Sequence record: PZ445440.1
DNA length: 64,000 nucleotides
Direction: 5' to 3' (one strand)
Origin: a phage
The position numbers were made by a program, and so were the translations under genes. The notes beneath the pieces are model-generated. The model did no database searches and was not told the origin of the DNA. It was given only the letters and a program-made list of their open reading frames with translations. Shown one piece after another: positions 759 to 56,661 of the stretch. Position 1 is the stretch's first letter. The number at the start of each line of letters is the position of its first letter.

Positions 759-2443
759 TAGATTCGTTCCCATTGATGAGTGATATCGCCACCGATTGGA
801 CGATAGGAAACACCAGTTTCTTTATCAGTTAGTACCCATTTACCAGGATTTTTTGTAATAAGAGTAGCCGTTACAGGTTCTGCTACGTCATAACTAATAG
901 AGCCGTCTTGAAGTACACGGCCCATGTTACGTAATTGCTTAGTCAGAAGTTCCATACCTTTATAATATGCGGCTACCGCTTTAAGTGGATTATTCTTGAA
1001 ATAACCACCTAATGCAATCCAGATAATTGCCACCGCCAAATGATGATACTCGTTAAACGAACTCATCTTTCCATATTTGTAAATTAATGGATTGATGTTA
1101 ATAGTCACATTACAAGTTGTTTCATCAATAGTAAACTGTCCCCAGGTCGGATTAGCATTGAATTCATCATAACCTGAAACAGCGTAAAGCACTTTAGCTT
1201 CATCGTACAATTTTGGCCCGTAAATCTTGGTTTCACCAAAATATCCACGAGGGTCGATAAACTTGACTTCGCCATTATCAGTAATCATAGTATTACTGAA
1301 GTTCGGGTCACCATGAATAACAGAGTACTGTCCCTGAGAACGGTTATGATAACGAATAAGGTGTTCTAAAGCTTGTTTCAACATTGGCTTCAGACGTCCA
1401 ATCTTAGTGTAGTTCACATGTGTGATTTTACCAAATGAATCAATCAATGGTTGAATGCTTTCACAACGATCAATAACTTTCGTATAGAATTCTTTAGTGA
1501 AATCACGACGGACAGTTTCAGGACTTACAAAATAAGTGTCTGTGCTGAATTTCAGTGCATCTAAAATTGCATCAACAATTTGTGGACGAGCAAGACTTGA
1601 TTTGGATTTAATATATTCAAATGCCGGCTTACCTTTAATGCGTTCCATTTCAAAGTTATTTTCATTAACAGAAACTAACTGAGGAACTGAATCTGATTTC
1701 ACTTTCAAGTACCACGAAATCTCATCTTTCTGAAGAGCTCGACCCTGTTCGGTTAATGCGAATTTAGTTACAGTTTCTTCACCAATTTCAACTGCATTAA
1801 AACTACGATTAAGTTCACGAACTTCATGAGCTTTTTCAAGTTTAGGCATATCACCTAAATCAATTAGATTCATAAGCTCTGATTTATTGAATGCGCCGCT
1901 GTAAAGGAATTCTACGAAATCACGTCCTTTGCAGTATTCATGAATTTCCTCATCAGTAGAACCCATATAGAATTCCCAGTCTTTGAACTGATAAATTCCT
2001 ACAACATTACCGCCTGTTGCACCTACATTAGTGATATTTTCACCGTCGAAATTATATCGACATTCGTCACCCTTAACATAGATTGCGTTAACATTCCAAG
2101 ACCATGAACCAAAATCAGGAATAATATCACACCAGTTAACAATTACGTTATGGCCGTCTAAATCTTTGTGTAATTTAGCAAGAGCATAAGCAGAACCATA
2201 CGCTTCATCAACTGTACGAATAGTCACATTGAACCCTTCTTGCTCACAATAAGCTCGAACAGTTTCAGCAAATTTTGAATGAACTACTACAATAATTTCA
2301 TCTGCGCCAAGGTCAGAATAAATTGTATACAAATTGCTCAGAATAGTGTCTTGTTTATAGTTAACAAGCACCTTAGGAATATGATGCGTTATTGGATACA
2401 AACGAGTTGCCAGTCCAGCACCAAGAATAACAGCTTTTTTCAT
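758..2443 (-). CDS. bifunctional sugar-1-phosphate nucleotidyltransferase (N-term) / APH-type anomeric sugar kinase (C-term)
   Basis: N-term MKKAVILGAGLATRLYPIT matches GxGxRLxPxT of RmlA/GlmU-type pyrophosphorylases; C-term VIHGDPNFSNTMI..FIDPRG matches HGDxxxxN and DxG of aminoglycoside/choline-kinase fold. Confidence 0.75.
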   Translation of the reverse strand: MKKAVILGAGLATRLYPITHHIPKVLVNYKQDTILSNLYTIYSDLGADEIIVVVHSKFAETVRAYCEQEGFNVTIRTVDEAYGSAYALAKLHKDLDGHNVIVNWCDIIPDFGSWSWNVNAIYVKGDECRYNFDGENITNVGATGGNVVGIYQFKDWEFYMGSTDEEIHEYCKGRDFVEFLYSGAFNKSELMNLIDLGDMPKLEKAHEVRELNRSFNAVEIGEETVTKFALTEQGRALQKDEISWYLKVKSDSVPQLVSVNENNFEMERIKGKPAFEYIKSKSSLARPQIVDAILDALKFSTDTYFVSPETVRRDFTKEFYTKVIDRCESIQPLIDSFGKITHVNYTKIGRLKPMLKQALEHLIRYHNRSQGQYSVIHGDPNFSNTMITDNGEVKFIDPRGYFGETKIYGPKLYDEAKVLYAVSGYDEFNANPTWGQFTIDETTCNVTININPLIYKYGKMSSFNEYHHLAVAIIWIALGGYFKNNPLKAVAAYYKGMELLTKQLRNMGRVLQDGSISYDVAEPVTATLITKNPGKWVLTDKETGVSYRPIGGDITHQWERI

Positions 2444-2484
2444 GTTGTGGTCCTCATTGGTAAGTAGAAGTATTGTACACTATT

Positions 2485-2628
2485 CTAGTTAAAGCATTCA
2501 TACTTCGCTTGTAGTCCAATCATAATCCATCCAATTACAAGTGTTGGAATCATTACTGGAGCCGTTAAGCTCCAGTAGATAGTCATGACAAGCATCAATA
2601 GTAAAAGTCCTATTGTTATTGTTTTCAT
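2485..2628 (-). CDS. small hydrophobic protein (47 aa)
   Basis: hand translation MKTITIGLLLLMLVMTIYWSLTAPVMIPTLVIGWIMIGLQAKYECFN; ATGA overlap with upstream SIS gene stop. Confidence 0.35.
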   Translation of the reverse strand: MKTITIGLLLLMLVMTIYWSLTAPVMIPTLVIGWIMIGLQAKYECFN

Positions 2629-3260
2629 TGTTCGCCTCGTAACATGGCACCTAGTGCGCCGCCTGGATGGAACTTAAGGAAATCATTAGAGGTAAATCCA
2701 CGTTCAGACGAAAGGTTGATAGCGAACGTATCGATAAGCGCTAACAACAATGTAGTAGACATTGTCGGAGCTAAAGAGTTCTCGTCAACTTCTACCGCGA
2801 TACCGGTACAGAACGTATAATCAAAAAGAGCTTCGTATTCTTGTGGAATGTCAGGGTTACAATGTAACAGAATCTGTTTAACCTGAGGACGAATCATACG
2901 AAGATGTTTAGCAACACCTATCATTTCTTCAGTCTTACCAGAACGACTGATGTGAACTAATACATCATTAGGTGCAATAAATCCTGCGTCGCCATGAGAA
3001 TAATGCCCGGTGTTCAAGTACATACTCGGGATACCTAGTGAAGCAAAAGTCTCGGAAGCTTTAGTTGCGATATTAGCATTCTTACCAACACCTGTAATAA
3101 TTACACGACTTTCGTAATTACTCAGTCCAGGGCGACGAAGAGTTTCAAGAATAGCATTATATCGGGCAGGGTTTTGACTAATTATTTTAGCCATAGTGGC
3201 AAGAGATGAAGCTTGTTTTACGATTGCGTCAATAGCGATAGTGATTGGTGTAGTTTTCAT
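2625..3260 (-). CDS. SIS-domain sugar-phosphate isomerase, KdsD/GutQ (arabinose-5-phosphate isomerase)-like, no CBS domains
   Basis: ITGVGKNANIATKASETFASLGIPS...HGDAG...ISRSGKTEE and LAPTMSTT...FHPGGALG align with E. coli KdsD SIS domain from memory. Confidence 0.8.
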   Translation of the reverse strand: MKTTPITIAIDAIVKQASSLATMAKIISQNPARYNAILETLRRPGLSNYESRVIITGVGKNANIATKASETFASLGIPSMYLNTGHYSHGDAGFIAPNDVLVHISRSGKTEEMIGVAKHLRMIRPQVKQILLHCNPDIPQEYEALFDYTFCTGIAVEVDENSLAPTMSTTLLLALIDTFAINLSSERGFTSNDFLKFHPGGALGAMLRGEQ

Positions 3261-3300: not shown

Positions 3301-6012
3301 TCAAAAATCAAACATATCGAACAGAGATGCTTTCTTCTCGTAATCGAGTTTCGCTGCTGATGTGAATCCTTCAAGTGGTTTAATAAATGTCTTCTCAAGG
3401 AGAACAGTGTAGTCCATCCAATGAAGTACATCATCTTTGATTAAATCAGTGATTTCCGTACCAGAAGGCCATGCGATACATTTATCACCGAACGGGTTTC
3501 CATCACGTAAAGGCAGAACGTATACCTTTTCGCCTTCTACAACTTGTGGAGCATCAATATTACCTTTGATAGCTCGGTTATATGTCAGAATTCCACGAAT
3601 ATGGAATGGGCATTTAGGTCCTGGATATCCACCTACATCATATTTAGCAATGTTATTCGCAGAAGATACCGACGCGATGCTAATATAATTCAATTGACGG
3701 AATTCTTTTTCAAACTCTTTAAAATATTCTTGTAATGATTCTTCACCTTCTTGAAGCATACGACGAATACATTCTTTAAGAGCTTTCTGTACTGCTTTAG
3801 GGGTCGAAGATTTCTGAGTTTCTAGACCCATGATTTTGAGTTTAGGCTCAGCGTAACGAGTACCTTCCATATCCCACACGTTTAATGCATAACGTTTCTT
3901 ACCAGTCCAGAATCCACCAATACCTTTAGAACCGAGCGGAGGACCAGCGATAGCTTCTCGGTCCATGAACATTAAGTGTTGTTTATTGTTCATGTATTCA
4001 CACATTTCACGGAAACCTCTATCAATAGCAGGTTCCATACGTTCACGTGCAAACTTATCTAAGAAGTCTACCCAATGGTTGGTATCACGGAATTTAGATT
4101 CACCAACCTTATCGATAATTTTATCAGCAGATACGTAAATAGAGTCGGTATCACCATAAAGAACGAAAGCTTCACCTTCTGTACCACAAACTTCATTCAG
4201 ATATTCATTAACTTTACGTTCAATCCACTGTAAAGCCATTTGCCCAAATGTTGTGATTGCAGTAGCATTACGCAAATCATAATAACGGAACCAAACGTTT
4301 CCAAGTGCACCATAAAGTGAGTTGATAAGCAATTTACGGTTAATTTGTGCAGTCATACCTGCAACTTCAGTACGTTGAGCTCTAAACAACATTTCATTAA
4401 GAGATTTAGCAGACAACTTTTTAATCTTTTCTTTAATCTCATCACTGAAGTCGAAACGATAATCAACATCTAATGGTTCGTCAACAGAAAGATTAGGATT
4501 ATGCAATGCCTCTTTAATTATTTCACCATTACGTTGAGCTGCAAGCATGTAACCTTTATGTTCTTTACGTTGATTAAAGACCTTAGTGATTTCAGTTGGA
4601 ACTACACCATCACGGTCTTTATAATACATCATGCCGTTAGGAGAGCAACTGTACACATCTGAAGGACGTTCAGCGATTGCGTTAATATAATCATGCAGTG
4701 GAGCTACTTTAAACGTTCCTGCTATTGTTTCCGGGCTAATATTCACTTGGCGAATAATACTTGGATACAGAGATGTAAGGTCGAAACTCATTACATATTT
4801 GTATCGATTTGGAATAGGTTCCTTAACAAAAGCGCCAGGATAAGGTTGAACCGGATGAGAACGACCTTGTGGAATCACCTTGTTCTGCTCTTTAAGGCTA
4901 TTAAAAATAATAGCATCCCATGTTTTAATTGGGCTAAACACAGATTGAATCTGTATCTTAGCATAATAACCCATGTCCAAACTCAAGTTGATGAACTGAC
5001 GCTTAGCATCAATTTGCAATACACGATACACGTCGATAATGTTATAAGAAATATATCGTTGGTGATTGCTTTCACGAAGCTTAGAAATAGGGCCGTCATA
5101 TTTCAGTTTACCGACGTTCAATTCAAATTCTGAAATGTAATCCAGAGAATACGACGGTTGATTGGTAAAAGAGAATTTTTTGTAAAGGTCAATGTAATCA
5201 AGAACAGAGATACCGAACAATGTAATGATTTCACGAGAACCATACATGTTTTCGATAACTTTAACACGAGTTTTACGATGTGGTGATAAACGTTTCGCAG
5301 TAGATTCGCCAAAAATATTCTTGATTCTGTTATACACATATGGAATATCAAATGACTCAACGTTCCATCCAGTCAAAATGACAGGAGTTTTCTGTTGCCA
5401 GAAGTTGAGATATTCCATCAACAATTCTTTTTCGTTATCGAACGGCATATAAACAATTTTGTCGATAATTTCGGATGGAACTTCATCACCGCCTTGTTCT
5501 TGAAGCTTAGCAGCGATTTCAATAGACCATTCTTCTACATTACCATATGGAGAATTCAATAGATCAAATACGTAGAACCTGTCGTCAATTGAGTCATAAT
5601 GGGTGATAGCATCAATCGGATGTTTTGCTTGTGACGGCTCAGGGAACCCATCCGGAGATGTTACTTCGATGTCGAAGTTAGCCACACGAATTTTTGTATG
5701 GTCGTATTTGATTTCATAGTTATAAGTGTCAGACAAATACGCTAATTTGAAATCGTCCATGCCAAGTGCTTCAAGTCCGATATCTTCCATGCGTTTAATC
5801 CATTGTGAGGCATCACGCATATTAGCGAACAACTTACGAGTACACGGCTTACCGTAGATATCGAAATATTTCGTAGCCTGACTTTCTGGACAATGAGCAA
5901 ACAGTGATGGTTTATATTCTACTTCACGAGTACGTTCACGGCCATTAGAATCGATGTAACGTTCAAAAATTGAATCACCAATCTGTTCAACCGTTAAGTA
6001 AAATTCTTTCAT
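3301..6012 (-). CDS. 43: DNA polymerase (family B), gp43
   Basis: 903 aa; MKEFYLTVEQIGDSIFERYIDSNGRERTREVEYKPSLFAHCPESQATKYF..., DIE exo motif, YGDTDS polymerase motif; matches RB69 gp43 from memory. Confidence 0.98.
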   Translation of the reverse strand: MKEFYLTVEQIGDSIFERYIDSNGRERTREVEYKPSLFAHCPESQATKYFDIYGKPCTRKLFANMRDASQWIKRMEDIGLEALGMDDFKLAYLSDTYNYEIKYDHTKIRVANFDIEVTSPDGFPEPSQAKHPIDAITHYDSIDDRFYVFDLLNSPYGNVEEWSIEIAAKLQEQGGDEVPSEIIDKIVYMPFDNEKELLMEYLNFWQQKTPVILTGWNVESFDIPYVYNRIKNIFGESTAKRLSPHRKTRVKVIENMYGSREIITLFGISVLDYIDLYKKFSFTNQPSYSLDYISEFELNVGKLKYDGPISKLRESNHQRYISYNIIDVYRVLQIDAKRQFINLSLDMGYYAKIQIQSVFSPIKTWDAIIFNSLKEQNKVIPQGRSHPVQPYPGAFVKEPIPNRYKYVMSFDLTSLYPSIIRQVNISPETIAGTFKVAPLHDYINAIAERPSDVYSCSPNGMMYYKDRDGVVPTEITKVFNQRKEHKGYMLAAQRNGEIIKEALHNPNLSVDEPLDVDYRFDFSDEIKEKIKKLSAKSLNEMLFRAQRTEVAGMTAQINRKLLINSLYGALGNVWFRYYDLRNATAITTFGQMALQWIERKVNEYLNEVCGTEGEAFVLYGDTDSIYVSADKIIDKVGESKFRDTNHWVDFLDKFARERMEPAIDRGFREMCEYMNNKQHLMFMDREAIAGPPLGSKGIGGFWTGKKRYALNVWDMEGTRYAEPKLKIMGLETQKSSTPKAVQKALKECIRRMLQEGEESLQEYFKEFEKEFRQLNYISIASVSSANNIAKYDVGGYPGPKCPFHIRGILTYNRAIKGNIDAPQVVEGEKVYVLPLRDGNPFGDKCIAWPSGTEITDLIKDDVLHWMDYTVLLEKTFIKPLEGFTSAAKLDYEKKASLFDMFDF

Positions 6013-50895: not shown

Positions 50896-51630
50896 TTACC
50901 TTAAGATTTTTTCAATTTTAGAATAAAGCTCTTCTAAAGAGCCGTCGTTTGTAATAACTAAATCGCCTTCTTCAATAGGCAACCCAGCTTCTGTAATATG
51001 TTTATCAGTGGATTCCGTACCAGAGCGAACCACATGAATAACTGTAGCACCCATCGCTCTAGCGGTTTCCATTTCATGGACTTGGCGTGTATCGGTCACA
51101 ACGTAGTAATCGAAATCACTTCCAATATAATCCATATAGTTTAATGCAAAAAGCTTAACCCAATACATACGGTCAAATAAATTAACGACAACATCCGTAC
51201 CGAGGGCTTGCATAAGACGGCGGATTGACCACGTGTCGTTGTTATTATTTATAGCTTCACGCAGGGCTTCGTACGGTTTAATATCTAGATATGAGTATCC
51301 ACCTTCTAACGATGATAATACTTTAACATTATTAATTGGTAAATATTGACTTTGTAAATAAATTAGCGCTTCTTCCATTAATTCAATAACATCCAACTTA
51401 TTGAGATTTAATGGTGTTTCACGGTCGTATCCAATGCCTTCAAAGTATTCGTATTTCAACTCAGTGAATACATCCGGGTTTTCGGCATGTTTACGCTCCC
51501 AAGCTATTGCTAGAGCGTCTTTAATTGGATATGCTAATTGGTATTTTACGGATTTAAAGTTTGAATTAATGTAATCAGCAGTAGTGTCTTTACCACTACG
51601 TTTGATGCCGCTTAAAAAGATTAGCTCCAT
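50896..51630 (-). CDS. 1: deoxynucleoside monophosphate kinase gp1
   Basis: FLSGIKRSGKDTTADYI, DRMYWVKLFALNYMDY, ARAMGATVIHVVR match T4 gp1. Confidence 0.9.
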   Translation of the reverse strand: MELIFLSGIKRSGKDTTADYINSNFKSVKYQLAYPIKDALAIAWERKHAENPDVFTELKYEYFEGIGYDRETPLNLNKLDVIELMEEALIYLQSQYLPINNVKVLSSLEGGYSYLDIKPYEALREAINNNNDTWSIRRLMQALGTDVVVNLFDRMYWVKLFALNYMDYIGSDFDYYVVTDTRQVHEMETARAMGATVIHVVRSGTESTDKHITEAGLPIEEGDLVITNDGSLEELYSKIEKILR

Positions 51631-51684: not shown

Positions 51685-52269
51685 TTAGCGCAAGGAAGGG
51701 TGTCTAGAAATGGATTTAGATTCGGCAGCCTGACGTGGTTGTTGAGATACAATGACTTCGCCATCCTTTTCTATCGTCATATACGCGTAGTGAATAGTTG
51801 CTACGCAAGTAACGGCAGGGTCAGAGTCTTCAGTGTAACTAAATTCAATTTCGCTCAAATCGGAAATCCATGGTTTATAGAAATTTGCTGTCAAAACTAC
51901 TTCTGTCTTATTGTTGTTTAAAATGTGCAAAGTAACAAACTCAGGACCATCGGCATGGGCTGTATTATGACCAGTTATATAGTTATTAGTGCTGAGCATC
52001 CATTTATACATGTTCATCCAGGACGTCATGTCTTCATCAACTATAAATCGTACAACAAAAGGGTCATATTCAAATGTGGTGCCTGCACGCATTGCACGCC
52101 CTAGCCCCATTGTGCCAGTCACAGTTTCAACAACAGGAATTCTCACACCTGGCAATGGAGCCGTTTGGGCATTGAGCACAAAACCTGAAGTTCGTGTACT
52201 ATCCGGGATATCCACAACAAAGTTTGTTATATTTGTTTGGTTAAAAATCTGTCTCGTTGGACGAGTCAT
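51685..52269 (-). CDS. 3: tail completion / sheath stabiliser gp3
   Basis: position between 1 and 2 as in T4; start at ATG. Confidence 0.6.
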   Translation of the reverse strand: MTRPTRQIFNQTNITNFVVDIPDSTRTSGFVLNAQTAPLPGVRIPVVETVTGTMGLGRAMRAGTTFEYDPFVVRFIVDEDMTSWMNMYKWMLSTNNYITGHNTAHADGPEFVTLHILNNNKTEVVLTANFYKPWISDLSEIEFSYTEDSDPAVTCVATIHYAYMTIEKDGEVIVSQQPRQAAESKSISRHPSLR

Positions 52270-52371
52270 AAGCACCTCAAAAACGCTTTAATAAAAATGC
52301 AGTATAATGGTTTTAGGTCTCTTCCATTAATCTGGTTCAACAGAATATCAGAAGAACGGAAGAGAATAGAA

Positions 52372-53193
52372 TTAAGATTTCCAAACAGTATTCGCAGAGA
52401 AACGTTTTCCTTTTGACATAAACTGCTGAGTAGGTAACATGATTATGTTAGCCCAGTCTTTAGGAGCTATTTCTGTTATTGTTCCTCTAATGTGGCCTGG
52501 CAGGTATGCTTTAATCATTTTGTCAGCACCTTGAAATCCTTTCACCTTGCTCCAGTCTATCTTCAACTTTGTGTTATTAGTAATAGTAGTTGTGCTAGCA
52601 TATTGCTTCAGCAATTCTTCAAGAAACTGTTGACGTGCTTTAGGCGGGATATAGTGCAAGTTTAACCCATACATCAAATTATGTTTACCTAATCCTAAAT
52701 AAATAATCAAAGGATATCGGTCCCAATATGGCAGAGTATCTTTATGTTTAGCATCATACATGTAAGTATAAATTTTGCCTGGCGTAGGCTTGACTACTTT
52801 ATGACCTTTTACACTTTTCTTAATTGTTTCAACAAACCACTTAGATGATTTGTTGTTTACTGCTGCGCCTTCATTTCTAATCTTTTCTCGTATTGAACTG
52901 CGAAACGAGTTTATCATCAGAAGTTGACGTTCTTGCTTATTGAGTTTATTTTTAGGTTTAGATTCAAGCGTTTCAATTTTCTGTGCAGTCTTAATAGATG
53001 ATGCATATCTAGACATTGCAGATGTAAACGACGAGTATTTTATTCCTTTTGATTCTGCAAATGCTTTTGCAGTGATTCCTTTCTCTTTAGCTTTCTTGTA
53101 TTCTAATCCTATCTCAATCCATTTTCTTTCATTCATAGACTGAGCAATCTTAGGGGCTTGTACGCCTTCAGATATAATTTGGAATATGCTCAT
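52372..53193 (-). CDS. 2: DNA end protector protein gp2
   Basis: 273 aa basic protein at T4 gene 2 position. Confidence 0.65.
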
Positions 53194-53840
53194 TCAACTT
53201 TCCTCATTTTACAATTATCACCATGCCAACGTTTATAAGGCGCAGGTTTACATTCTATACCGCAGTATTGGCATATCTTATTAGGAGTATTTAAGTATCC
53301 TAATCTCATGTTTTCCTTTTCTTCAGGAGTTCTATTTCGTCCCGTAAGAGTATTTTTTATTTTGTCTCTAATCTCTTTAGGCATTATCCTGCCTCGGCCT
53401 GCTTTACCTATTTTAGCTTTATGCTCTTCGGATAATTTCTTACCCTTCTTAGCTAAACTCATTTTCTTTTTAGATTCTTCGGAAATAGGACCTAATTTTC
53501 TACCTCTGGATGAATCGCCTATTCTTTTTCGCACATCGATAGAACGGCCTCGTCCTCCCTTTCCTCCTAGGTCTATATTATATGTATCTTCTCTATCCAC
53601 AAAAGATTGATCAACTAATTCTGCTTCCTTTTGGAAAGCCATTTCTTCATTTAGTAATTCGTCACCGGTATCATACACATATAATACTTCTTTTACAAAA
53701 TTATCTAATCCGTATTTAGCATGGGCTTTTAAGATAATTTTACCTGTTCCTTTATAAGAATCATCCGGGTTATTAGTTTTATGAACACCTATATAAATTT
53801 TATTATTTACGATGTTAGTTATTTTATATACAGTATACAT
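53190..53840 (-). mobile_element. free-standing GIY-YIG homing endonuclease (Seg/I-TevI-like) with NUMOD3 repeats, inserted between genes 2 and 4
   Basis: MYTVYKITNIVNNKIYIGVHKTNN...YKGTGKII (GIY-YIG), repeated G+xxSEE.K.K motifs. Confidence 0.8.
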
Positions 53841-53841
53841 A

Positions 53842-54291
53842 TCATCCCTTATATCCTAAACGACGTAAACCGTCTTCTGTGAGAATTCTGAATTTAATAT
53901 TTCTTTTAGCCGCTAATGCTGACGCAGCTTTCCATTTGTCGCAGTTCACAGACCACACGTAGATCTCGTTCATATAACGTTTCTTTGCTGCAGTCGTAAG
54001 ATTTGCAGGCTTAATAGGTGGTTGAGTTTCTTTCTTTGGTTTTATTTCTACAAAGAACTCTTGACCTGATGCATCTTTCATCCATATATCCATAAAGTAT
54101 CTACGTTTTTTACCTTCTGCGTTACAGAAATATGGAATTACTGCTGTTTCGCTGCCCCATGCAATAATTTCTGGATTTTTATCTAACCATTCGAAAAAGA
54201 ATTTTTCCCAGTTTGAACGATACGTTATTTTGGTATGGTCTCCACGGTATTTTTTTAAATTTTTTGGGACCCATTTACCAGAGTAGGCCAT
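53842..54291 (-). CDS. 4: head completion protein gp4
   Basis: MAYSGKWVPKNLKKYRGD...YRSNWEKFFFEWLDKNPEIIAWGSE matches T4 gp4. Confidence 0.9.
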   Translation of the reverse strand: MAYSGKWVPKNLKKYRGDHTKITYRSNWEKFFFEWLDKNPEIIAWGSETAVIPYFCNAEGKKRRYFMDIWMKDASGQEFFVEIKPKKETQPPIKPANLTTAAKKRYMNEIYVWSVNCDKWKAASALAAKRNIKFRILTEDGLRRLGYKG

Positions 54292-54302
54292 GTTGTCCTC
54301 CT

Positions 54303-54325
54303 TATAAATAGTATTATTATTTATA
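54303..54325. promoter_or_regulatory. divergent late promoter pair: TATAAATA on plus (54303-54310, gene 53) and on minus (54318-54325, gene 4)
   Basis: exact T4 late-promoter consensus on both strands. Confidence 0.7.
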
Positions 54326-54352
54326 CCAATTTCATATTGGAAGGAGACTATC

Positions 54353-54928
54353 TTGTTATTTACATTCTTCGACCCAATAGGATATAGTGCTAAAACCATT
54401 AATAAGAATGCACCTACTATTCCTATGACAGACATATTTCGTAACTATAAAGAGTACTTTAAGCGTGTTGCTGCCAATTATAGATTACGTTCTTATTATA
54501 TTAAAGGCTCTCCGCGTCCTGAAGAACTAGCAAACATAATTTATGGCAACCCTCAATTATACTGGGTCCTTTTGATGTGCAACGATAACTACGACCCGTA
54601 TTATGGTTGGATTACATCTCAGGAAGCAGCGTATCAAGCTTCTATTCAGAAATATGCAAATGCAGGTGGAGACCAAATTCTTTATCATATTAACGAAAAA
54701 CGCGAGAAATTTTATAACTTAGTTTCATATCCAGATGAGCCATTAGTATGGTATGATAAAGGCGATAAAGCTCGTAAGTATCCACAATATAAAGGACCTT
54801 TAGCTGCAGTAGATACTTATGAAGCGGCAGTATTAGATAATGAAAAACTTCGTAAAATAAAAATTGTTGCAAAAGAAGATATAAACTCGTTTATCACAGA
54901 TTTGATTCGTGAGATGGAGATTGCATAA
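54353..54928 (+). CDS. 53: baseplate wedge protein gp53
   Basis: MLFTFFDPIGYSAKTINKNAPTIPMTDIF matches T4 gp53; apparent TTG start 6 nt after SD AAGGAG. Confidence 0.9.
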   Translation: MLFTFFDPIGYSAKTINKNAPTIPMTDIFRNYKEYFKRVAANYRLRSYYIKGSPRPEELANIIYGNPQLYWVLLMCNDNYDPYYGWITSQEAAYQASIQKYANAGGDQILYHINEKREKFYNLVSYPDEPLVWYDKGDKARKYPQYKGPLAAVDTYEAAVLDNEKLRKIKIVAKEDINSFITDLIREMEIA

Positions 54929-56661
54929 TGGAAATGATTAGCAGTAGCCTTAATTGGTTCGTGGGTGTTGTCGAGGACAGAATGGACCCATTAAAACAAG
55001 GGCGAGTTCGAGTGCGAGTAGTTGGTCTTCATCCGGCACAGAGAGCACAAGGTGATGTACAAGGTATTCCTACAGAAAAACTTCCATGGATGACTGTTAT
55101 TCAACCTATTACGTCTGCATCAATGTCAGGTATTGGTGGTTCTGTTACAGGTCCTGTTGAAGGAACTCGAGTATATGGTCATTTCTTAGACAAATGGAAA
55201 ACAAACGGGATTGTACTTGGTACATACGGCGGAATCGTACGTGAAAAGCCTAATAGACTTGAAGGTTTTTCAGACCCGACAGGCCAGTACCCGCGACGTT
55301 TAGGTAATGATACGAACGTATTAAACCAAGGTGGTGAAGCTGGTTATTATTCAAACTCTAATGTAATTCAAGATAACAACTTGGATTATGGTATAAACCC
55401 AGATGATACAGATTTAGCAAATATTCCAGAAGATGATGACCCTAATTTTACAATAACAGAAATGTTACGTCGTGACGAAGGTCTTCGTGATAAAGTGTAT
55501 TGGGACCATCTCGGGTATCCTACAGTAGGTATTGGACACCTTATCGTAATGGAAAAGACCCGAGATATGTCTCGAATTAATAAATTGTTATCCGATCAAG
55601 TAGGGCGTGAAGTAACAGGAAATCCGGGAACTATTACATTAGAAGAAGCAACAGCGTTATTTGAGAAGGACCTTGCTAAGATGCAGAAAGACATTCGTTC
55701 TAATTCTAAAGTAGGTCCTGTTTATGCTAAAATGAACAGATCTCGCCAAATGGCATTAGAAAACATGTGCTTCCAAATGGGCGTTGGTGGTGTAGCAAAA
55801 TTCAATACTATGCTTAAAGCAATGGCCACAGGTGATTGGAAAACCGCATACAAATCTGGACGCGATTCGTTATGGTTCCAGCAGACTAAAGGGCGTGCTT
55901 CACGTGTAACAACAATTATTTTAACCGGTAACATGGAATCATACGGTGTTCCTGTTAAAACACCACCTTCACCAGGAGTTGGTGCTGATTTAGTTACTAG
56001 AAATACCGATCCAGAAGACCCGGCTGGTCCTCCTGTTCCATTAGATTCACGCATCCTTTTTAAAGAACCGGAATCAAGTTATCGTGGTGAGTACCCATAT
56101 GTTCATGCTATGGAAACAGAAAGTGGTCATATCCAAGAATTTGACGATACTCCAGGTAATGAACGTTATCGCTTAGTTCATCCAACAGGGTCATATGAGG
56201 AAGTTTCTCCATCTGGGCGTCGTACTCGTAAAACTGTAGAAGACCTTTTTGACATCACTAATGGTGATGGGAACTTCTTGATTTCCGGTGATAAGCTTGT
56301 TAACGTTGGTGCTAATGAAATATATTATAACATGGCGGACCGCCTCCATCAAATAGACGGCAATGACACAATCTTTATTCGTGGCAACCAAGTTAAAACT
56401 GTTGAAGGTGATGGAACTCTTTACGTTAAGGGCAATATCAAAATAGTCGTTGACGGGAATGCAGATATTCTTGTTAAAGGTGATGCTAAGACTCAAGTTG
56501 AAGGGAATCATGACTACACTGTCAATGGTAATGTTAAATGGACTGTCAATGGTAATGTTGATATGACTGTTGCTGGCAATTGGTCGGAGACAATGACTAC
56601 AATGAGCTCAATAGCTTCAGGACAATACACTGTTGACGGATCTCGTATTGATATTGGGTAA
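54928..56661 (+). CDS. 5: baseplate hub spike protein gp5 with lysozyme domain
   Basis: 577 aa; N-terminal OB domain, central T4-lysozyme-like domain, C-terminal VxGxxxxx beta-helix repeats. Confidence 0.97.
   Translation: MEMISSSLNWFVGVVEDRMDPLKQGRVRVRVVGLHPAQRAQGDVQGIPTEKLPWMTVIQPITSASMSGIGGSVTGPVEGTRVYGHFLDKWKTNGIVLGTYGGIVREKPNRLEGFSDPTGQYPRRLGNDTNVLNQGGEAGYYSNSNVIQDNNLDYGINPDDTDLANIPEDDDPNFTITEMLRRDEGLRDKVYWDHLGYPTVGIGHLIVMEKTRDMSRINKLLSDQVGREVTGNPGTITLEEATALFEKDLAKMQKDIRSNSKVGPVYAKMNRSRQMALENMCFQMGVGGVAKFNTMLKAMATGDWKTAYKSGRDSLWFQQTKGRASRVTTIILTGNMESYGVPVKTPPSPGVGADLVTRNTDPEDPAGPPVPLDSRILFKEPESSYRGEYPYVHAMETESGHIQEFDDTPGNERYRLVHPTGSYEEVSPSGRRTRKTVEDLFDITNGDGNFLISGDKLVNVGANEIYYNMADRLHQIDGNDTIFIRGNQVKTVEGDGTLYVKGNIKIVVDGNADILVKGDAKTQVEGNHDYTVNGNVKWTVNGNVDMTVAGNWSETMTTMSSIASGQYTVDGSRIDIG

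Follow-up and report, generated by a model that had tools for sequence, protein, structure and literature searches.

In the window, by which we mean the whole 64,000-nucleotide stretch of phage DNA analysed here (PZ445440.1), an open reading frame of 216 codons (hereafter the ORF) lies between genes 4 and 2, in the same gene context as in T4, as a preliminary description of this DNA had reported. The gene order across the locus, 1, 3, 2, ORF, 4, 53 and 5, is T4-like, with genes 53 and 5 on the plus strand and divergent from gene 4, the ORF and gene 2 (Table 1). The 2,064 nt queried from the window are 100% identical to Escherichia phage ChristianSchoenbein (BASEL phage Bas46, MZ501056.1), which is assigned to Mosigvirus, species phapec2. 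The ORF is thus already annotated: in MZ501056.1 it appears as bas46_0255, 'putative homing endonuclease', and its relatives in RB16 and KARL-1 are labelled 'Seg-like'. Genes 4 and 2 have one nucleotide in common in T4 and are 2 nt apart in RB69, and the net insertion between them amounts to 646 bp. Overlapping stop and start codons, which the preliminary description had noted, are present where the ORF meets gene 2 (ATGA); at its other end the stop of gene 4 and the start of the ORF are one base apart (TGAtATG). A mechanical list of reading frames gives gene 4 as 197 aa (53842-54435, ATG at 54435). The annotated homologues have 149 aa and correspond to a start at 54291 (MAYSGKW...), and a late-promoter motif falls inside the longer form's extension, so the 149-aa version is almost certainly the real gene. 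Its product, gp4, matches the Pfam TnsA-like endonuclease N-terminal domain (PF08722, 4.9e-20, 72 bits) and is named 'head completion nuclease' in some database records; the gene predicted below to be the endonuclease target would therefore itself encode a nuclease-fold protein.

Table 1. Features of the gene 4/gene 2 locus, in window coordinates.
Feature	Position	Strand	Remark
Gene 1, dNMP kinase	50896-51630	-	
Gene 3	51685-52275	-	
Gene 2, DNA end protector, 273 aa	52372..53193	-	Downstream neighbour of the ORF
Block without a variable site at either edge	53135..53937	-	Nearest variable sites among the four carriers: 53134 (gene 2), 53938 (gene 4)
ORF, Seg-like free-standing homing endonuclease gene (probable), 216 aa	53190..53840	-	ATG-to-TGA reading frame; 216 codons
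ORF 3' end: putative new Shine-Dalgarno (GAGGAAAG) and ATGA stop/start overlap for gene 2	53190..53205	-	Read from the sequence
CCHC zinc-knuckle-like module (C190, C193, H206, C210; 'CxxCG.ECKPAPYKRWHGDNCK')	53211..53273	-	Putative specificity element
Linker and DNA-binding region, five helices	53283..53549	-	Three clear NUMOD3-like repeats and two degenerate copies
GIY-YIG catalytic domain, aa 1-95 (Y5, Y16-I17-G18, H20, E72, N88)	53556..53840	-	
Gene 4, head completion, 149 aa	53842..54291	-	Upstream neighbour of the ORF; predicted target gene
Recoded gene-4 3' end, strictly linked to the ORF	53842..53923	-	Predicted to replace, hence remove, the endonuclease target
T4-type late promoter TATAAATA upstream of gene 4	54318..54325	-	Consensus match alone; motif not enriched in the window

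The insertion appears to have been accommodated within an existing expression unit. The only T4-type late-promoter motifs nearby form a divergent pair in the 4/53 intergenic region, the minus-strand copy listed in Table 1 and a plus-strand copy at 54303-54310. A search for TATAAATA within the ORF and the gene-4 tail returned none, so that the ORF has the appearance of a cassette without a promoter of its own, carried on a late transcript running from gene 4 to gene 2. Seven free-standing endonuclease genes of T4 are described as likewise lacking promoters of their own and residing in the transcripts of their neighbours (PMC2988022). General-purpose searches for promoters and terminators, and RNA folding, produced no signal above background. 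The ORF is preceded by AAGGGA at the end of gene 4, the counterpart of the AAGGGG that precedes gene 2 in RB69; AAGGGA and GAGGAAAG would presumably act as the Shine-Dalgarno sites of the ORF and of gene 2, respectively.

Several results agree that the N-terminal domain of the ORF protein is a GIY-YIG nuclease, as judged from sequence and a structural model, although the Pfam result taken alone is weak. The protein matches PHROG 314 ('homing endonuclease') at 1.7e-50 and the Pfam family SegE_GIY-YIG at 21.1 bits, below the cut-off of 25. BLASTP against T4 retrieves SegB (2e-28), SegD (5e-28), SegC (5e-24), SegE (8e-19) and SegA (8e-16), with 36-48% identity over the N-terminal ~95-150 residues. 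The 'GIY' and 'YIG' motifs are represented by V4-Y5 and Y16-I17-G18, with the two catalytic tyrosines at the spacing of about 10-11 residues that is usual for the superfamily. When 43 homologues are aligned, Y5, Y16, G18, E72 (the position of the metal-binding glutamate) and N88 do not vary. A profile built from these homologues matches the catalytic domain of I-TevI (1LN0, E 5e-4) and aligns Y5, Y16, E72 and N88 with I-TevI Y6, Y17, E75 and N90. The AlphaFold2 model (mean pLDDT 91) has a beta-beta-alpha-beta-alpha core in which a three-stranded sheet is flanked by helices, and Foldseek returned I-TevI as its only confident matches (probability 0.97-1.0). The segment containing the I-TevI arginine R27 is a gap in the 43-homologue profile, and it is deleted likewise in an alignment of T4 SegA-E. 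Near this gap H20 is at least 90% conserved, and K21 and K30 lie close by; these three residues are candidates for an R27 substitute.

The missing arginine and the sub-threshold Pfam score could both be taken as signs that the ORF product no longer cleaves, whether as an inactive relic or after domestication, for example as a DNA-binding regulator, and that its patchy distribution reflects ordinary recombination and not homing. The reading frame is nonetheless intact, and the catalytic positions Y5, Y16, E72 and N88 have been kept without exception across the homologues. Moreover, SegA, SegB, SegC and SegE, which have the same arginine-less motif, are listed as active enzymes (PMC2988022), and we therefore read the loss of the R27 segment as a trait of the Seg clade, not as decay.

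Downstream of the catalytic domain the model places five helices (residues 101-184), and the sequence contains three clear NUMOD3-like repeats of ~17 aa at positions 120-133, 137-150 and 154-167. The Pfam match to NUMOD3 (PF07460) at residues 133-150 only just exceeds the cut-off (20.7 vs 20.4 bits), and relatives residing at the gene 4/gene 2 junction score 26-57 bits. The extreme C-terminus carries a CCHC arrangement with the spacing C190-x2-C193-x12-H206-x3-C210, which is kept in seven of seven junction-resident proteins and is absent from T4 SegA-E; by its sequence it would be expected to bind metal, and its function as a specificity element is presumptive. The preliminary description had recognized the N-terminal GIY-YIG module and the C-terminal NUMOD3-like repeats, and both assignments stand: the former on PHROG 314, T4 Seg similarity, the invariant catalytic residues and the I-TevI fold match, and the latter on the marginal PF07460 match together with three regular repeats. 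What it did not mention are the zinc-knuckle module at the C-terminus and the recoding of the end of gene 4 that is described below.

The ORF is rare among Mosigvirus phages. Only four carriers were found, ChristianSchoenbein, HX01, GADS24 and p000v, and their proteins are 100% identical even though the phages represent three or more species of Mosigvirus and were obtained in Switzerland, China and Saudi Arabia, with the origin of one unstated. An uninterrupted RB69-type 4/2 junction is present in about 145 records (at least 90% identity), PhAPEC2 and AlbertHofmann among them, and RB69 and mobillu likewise have the empty site. These empty junctions are uniform, and no remnants of the ORF were found in them. 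PhAPEC2 and AlbertHofmann belong to the same species as ChristianSchoenbein, and AlbertHofmann (Bas47) comes from the same Basel sewage plant. The insertion is thus a strain-specific indel, as had been proposed at the outset: comparison with RB69 and other relatives finds empty-site alleles in abundance, and the gene is clearly not a fixture of this position in all relatives. The carrier frequency is low, at about 4% of Mosigvirus records, which counts against presumed drive and is a further point for regarding the ORF as a relic.

Variation among the four carriers argues for recent movement of a discrete unit. The block that spans the ORF and its borders (803 nt) contains only five variable sites. 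The ORF and the recoded tail have 5 variable sites in 742 nt, and the flanks have 226 in 4322 nt, a rate that predicts 38.8 sites in the ORF and tail (Poisson P = 1.2e-11 for the five observed). Since the four carrier proteins are identical, the 4 variable sites inside the ORF are all synonymous. The flanks of the carriers differ by 3-6% while the ORF-plus-tail block is nearly identical, and in genes 1 and 3 the window has 52-56 differences to the other carriers as compared to 38-44 to empty-site phages. Because the flanks of the window are no nearer to carriers than to empty-site phages, the block behaves as a discrete unit in unrelated backgrounds, and its minimal extent is the ORF with 96 nt of gene 4 and 55-60 nt of gene 2. 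As far as can be judged from the sequences, this is the pattern of homing; neither vertical inheritance by itself nor precise loss on repeated occasions would leave it.

An inactive or domesticated ORF is difficult to reconcile with these data, since the carrier proteins are identical with synonymous changes only, and the trough of diversity together with the placement of the block in unrelated backgrounds is hard to explain without drive or a very recent transfer. In favour of the relic, T4 SegD reportedly (Sokolov et al., 2018) cleaves but does not home. On balance we regard it as improbable that the ORF is an inactive or domesticated remnant, and we think it likely that the ORF is an intact and recently mobile homing endonuclease gene of the Seg type. 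The initial classification as a typical free-standing homing endonuclease insertion is supported by the data, and the identical ORF-plus-tail block in unrelated backgrounds adds to this support.

The 3' end of gene 4 that travels with the ORF differs sharply from its surroundings. When the window is compared to RB69 with the ORF removed, 28 positions differ in the 100 nt just upstream of the insertion, which is the gene 4 3' end, as against none in the first 400 nt of gene 2 and 1-2 per 50 nt elsewhere. The recoded tail shows 0/82 differences among the four carriers, and 27/82 relative to each of RB69, PhAPEC2, mobillu and AlbertHofmann, and also relative to phage ECO111 5-P. Among the last 30 codons of gene 4, 18 differ, 14 of them synonymously and 4 conservatively. 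The tail is 68-70% identical to RB69, and the remaining gene 4 is 98-99% RB69-like. Beyond the four carriers the tail was not found in phage records, the next best match being ~76%. The metagenomic contig that encodes the closest relative of the ORF (73% aa identity) has a gene-4 tail that is marginally nearest to the recoded tail (76% vs 70% for RB69), with the A-L-A and R-I-L residues (two amino acid changes) in common. These comparisons hint that the tail was imported together with the ORF; the search for a donor of the tail found none, with 76% as the best match. Two smaller peaks of divergence from RB69, with 10 and 8 mismatches per 50 nt over a background of 1-2, lie at approximately 51290-51340 in gene 1, about 1,850-1,900 nt downstream of the junction in the coding orientation, and at approximately 54990-55040 at the start of gene 5, about 1,150-1,200 nt upstream of it. 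Both could reflect further patches of mosaicism or conversion.

The proposed mechanism follows the general scheme for intronless homing. The ORF would have entered the late gene 4-gene 2 unit of an RB69-like phage as a promoter-less cassette. During mixed infection, the enzyme would bind the empty 4/2 junction through its NUMOD3 helices and the C-terminal CCHC module, and introduce a double-strand break in or beside the last ~80-100 bp of gene 4 of the empty allele. Repair from the carrier genome would then transfer the ORF and, obligatorily co-converted with it, the neighbouring recoded end of gene 4. The carrier genome would itself escape cutting through the recoding of its gene-4 tail (27/82 nt, most changes synonymous) and through the insertion, which splits the junction. 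For its own translation the ORF presumably relies on the Shine-Dalgarno sequence that closes gene 4 and was originally used by gene 2. In turn it would supply a new Shine-Dalgarno sequence and the ATGA overlap for gene 2, so that expression of the essential neighbours would be kept. We infer cleavage activity, the position of the target, homing itself and late expression of the ORF from these features.

The placement of the target in the gene-4 tail or at the junction is a part of this scheme that we hold with less assurance, and we favour it only slightly. Cleavage sites of Seg enzymes are often hundreds of bp from the insertion, and the T4 free-standing endonucleases cut hundreds to thousands of bp from their genes (2010 review, PMC2988022). 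Consequently the target need not be the gene-4 tail, and the tail could be donor DNA that accompanied the ORF. An active Seg-type enzyme might instead cut further into gene 4, in gene 2 or at 53/5, with the tail a hitch-hiker and not an immunity determinant. In its divergence the tail resembles an orthologue from another genus (68-70% identity to RB69, 76% to the closest-relative contig), the A-L-A and R-I-L residues common with that contig point the same way, and in Gaprivervirus the divergent tract spans all of gene 4. On the other hand, outside the tail there has been free exchange of sequence with local backgrounds, and a peak of divergence sits directly beside the insertion in two independent genera. 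The tail and the ORF are never apart in about 150 genomes, which is expected if recombinants that combine the ORF with its target are selected against, but their tight physical linkage (82 nt) could equally account for this. A distant target with a passively carried tail is accordingly possible but doubtful.

In the last ~40 nt of gene 4 the empty-site phage mobillu has three substitutions within the putative target region, two of which match the state in ECO111 5-P; these could represent natural target-site variation relevant to susceptibility. ECO111 5-P (Mosigvirus, OR844765.1) itself has a different allele at the 4/2 junction, a protein of 245 aa (240 aa if started at the methionine aligned with the start of the window ORF) with about 45% aa identity to the ORF product and three strong NUMOD3 matches. 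At the nucleotide level the first ~30 and last ~15 codons of the two genes are 80-89% identical and the middle is 33-64% identical, and most of the linked divergence in ECO111 5-P gene 4 falls within the last ~35 nt. The pattern points to competing or recombining endonuclease alleles at one address.

By sequence, modelled fold, genomic habit and population pattern the ORF belongs to the Seg group of free-standing GIY-YIG homing endonucleases. Like T4 SegB, D, C, E and A, it has an N-terminal GIY-YIG domain with the motif 'YIG.H...DD.Y.G(S/T)G' and lacks the I-TevI R27 segment. Like the T4 genes it is free-standing between conserved genes, has the orientation of its neighbours, is promoter-less and occurs sporadically alongside empty sites, and it adjoins a divergent flank of the kind expected from co-conversion and target immunity. 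It differs in that none of the seven seg insertion sites of T4 (PMC2988022, Table 1) is at gene 4/gene 2, and in that its C-terminal half, with NUMOD3 repeats and a CCHC module, is unrelated to the C-termini of SegA-E. Its divergent tract also abuts the insertion, where the review places targets typically hundreds of bp away (PMC2988022), and the target is therefore probably close by. The relationship to I-TevI (PDB 1LN0/1MK0) is more remote. That enzyme is encoded in the T4 td intron, whereas the ORF is not intron-encoded, and the two proteins have about 20% identity with the R27 segment deleted from the ORF protein; phmmer found no match between them. The ORF protein lacks the C-terminal helix-turn-helix of I-TevI, and its zinc-knuckle-like module is at the extreme C-terminus, unlike the zinc finger of I-TevI, which is in the linker. 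Conceptually, nothing about the ORF departs from the established Seg paradigm. A literature search found no paper describing the ORF or the 4/2 site, nor any biochemistry or genetics of the protein or its clade.

The locus bears on the use of these phages in several ways. The insertion marks a hot spot of mosaicism, a source of distortion in phylogenies and in strain comparisons of the RB69-like phages that serve as therapeutics and models, and the authors of the BASEL collection warn of such distortion in general terms. From the sequence data, inheritance of the gene 4/2 region is predicted to be biased when carriers and empty-site phages infect together. Bas46, a carrier, and Bas47, with an empty site, are of the same species and sewage plant and have the same K-12 host, and so form a natural pair for the study of intronless homing, for which the sharply bounded recoded tail provides a specific and testable target prediction. 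If active, the enzyme would add a GIY-YIG nuclease with a long recognition site and an unusual NUMOD3-plus-CCHC DNA-binding region.

Related genes occupy the same address in other genera. Proteins with 41-66% identity are encoded between genes 4 and 2 in P479 and PSD2001 (Gaprivervirus), Yersinia phage vB_YenM_P8, vB_EluP_RZH (Karamvirus), RB16 and GAP161 (Pseudotevenvirus), and KARL-1 and relatives (Lazarusvirus, Twarogvirinae). Metagenomic homologues at 73%, 62% and 50% identity have genes 4 and 2 as neighbours as well, and a more distant relative, at 33%, does not. Those annotated as 'Seg-like' include RB16p187, KARL1_127, P479 QWQ55980, vB_YenM_P8 ORF043 and RZH XFC52740. The junction genes, known from database annotations alone, resemble the ORF in address and in architecture, including the CCHC tail, with 41-100% identity (100% in HX01, GADS24 and p000v). 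In Gaprivervirus, where 3 phages carry the gene and about 30 do not, comparison of P479 (carrier) with VR7 (empty) shows about 27% divergence over the whole of gene 4, with a peak of 23 mismatches per 50 nt beside the insertion, and 0-2 mismatches per 50 nt in gene 2, the same asymmetry as in Mosigvirus. The gene-4 tails linked to the junction relatives vary by genus and are 54-64% identical to the window tail; hence there is no common 'immune' sequence.

Relatives at one junction in many genera and two subfamilies could also be read as vertical inheritance of an ORF that was ancestral at the 4/2 position in T4-like phages and was precisely deleted in most lineages. We consider this very improbable. 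Carriers are a small minority in each genus examined (4 vs about 145 in Mosigvirus, 3 vs about 30 in Gaprivervirus), and the empty junctions are uniform and free of remnants. The ORF-plus-tail block is nearly identical despite flanks that differ by 3-6%, and the linked tail is foreign (68%) in a gene 4 that is otherwise 98-99% RB69-like. With about even confidence we propose that, instead, a deep Seg-like clade defined by the CCHC module has held on to the 4/2 address in no fewer than six genera and two subfamilies of straboviruses because it targets the conserved 3' coding end of gene 4, that each invasion would bring a recoded gene end as a built-in immunity cassette, and that the junction would serve as a shared landing pad for competing alleles of the ECO111 5-P type and for unrelated mobile ORFs of the type present in phage fPSFA.

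Shigella phage fPSFA (OR670333.1), which is P479-like, has at its 4/2 junction an unrelated Cys-rich ORF of 242 aa (2299-3027 of the compared region) with a weak, sub-threshold match to the DUF4379 treble-clef zinc finger (20.8 bits vs 24.5); it may be a different mobile gene that uses the same landing site. In P479 another Seg-like ORF of the GIY-YIG/NUMOD3 kind separates genes 53 and 5, and a 'MobB-like' ORF lies between genes 2 and 3 in P479, VR7 and fPSFA. In coordinates of the compared region, these mobile-endonuclease genes are at 763-1398 (minus strand) and 3969-4628 (plus strand) in P479 and at 3832-4488 in VR7. Their presence in Gaprivervirus indicates that genes of this kind insert preferentially in the 1-3-2-4-53-5 block, which is thus a hot spot for them. 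Between genes 2 and 3 of RB16 lies a 'conserved hypothetical' ORF on the opposite strand (4070-4855 of the compared region) that is absent from T4 and RB69, another indel within the same gene block.
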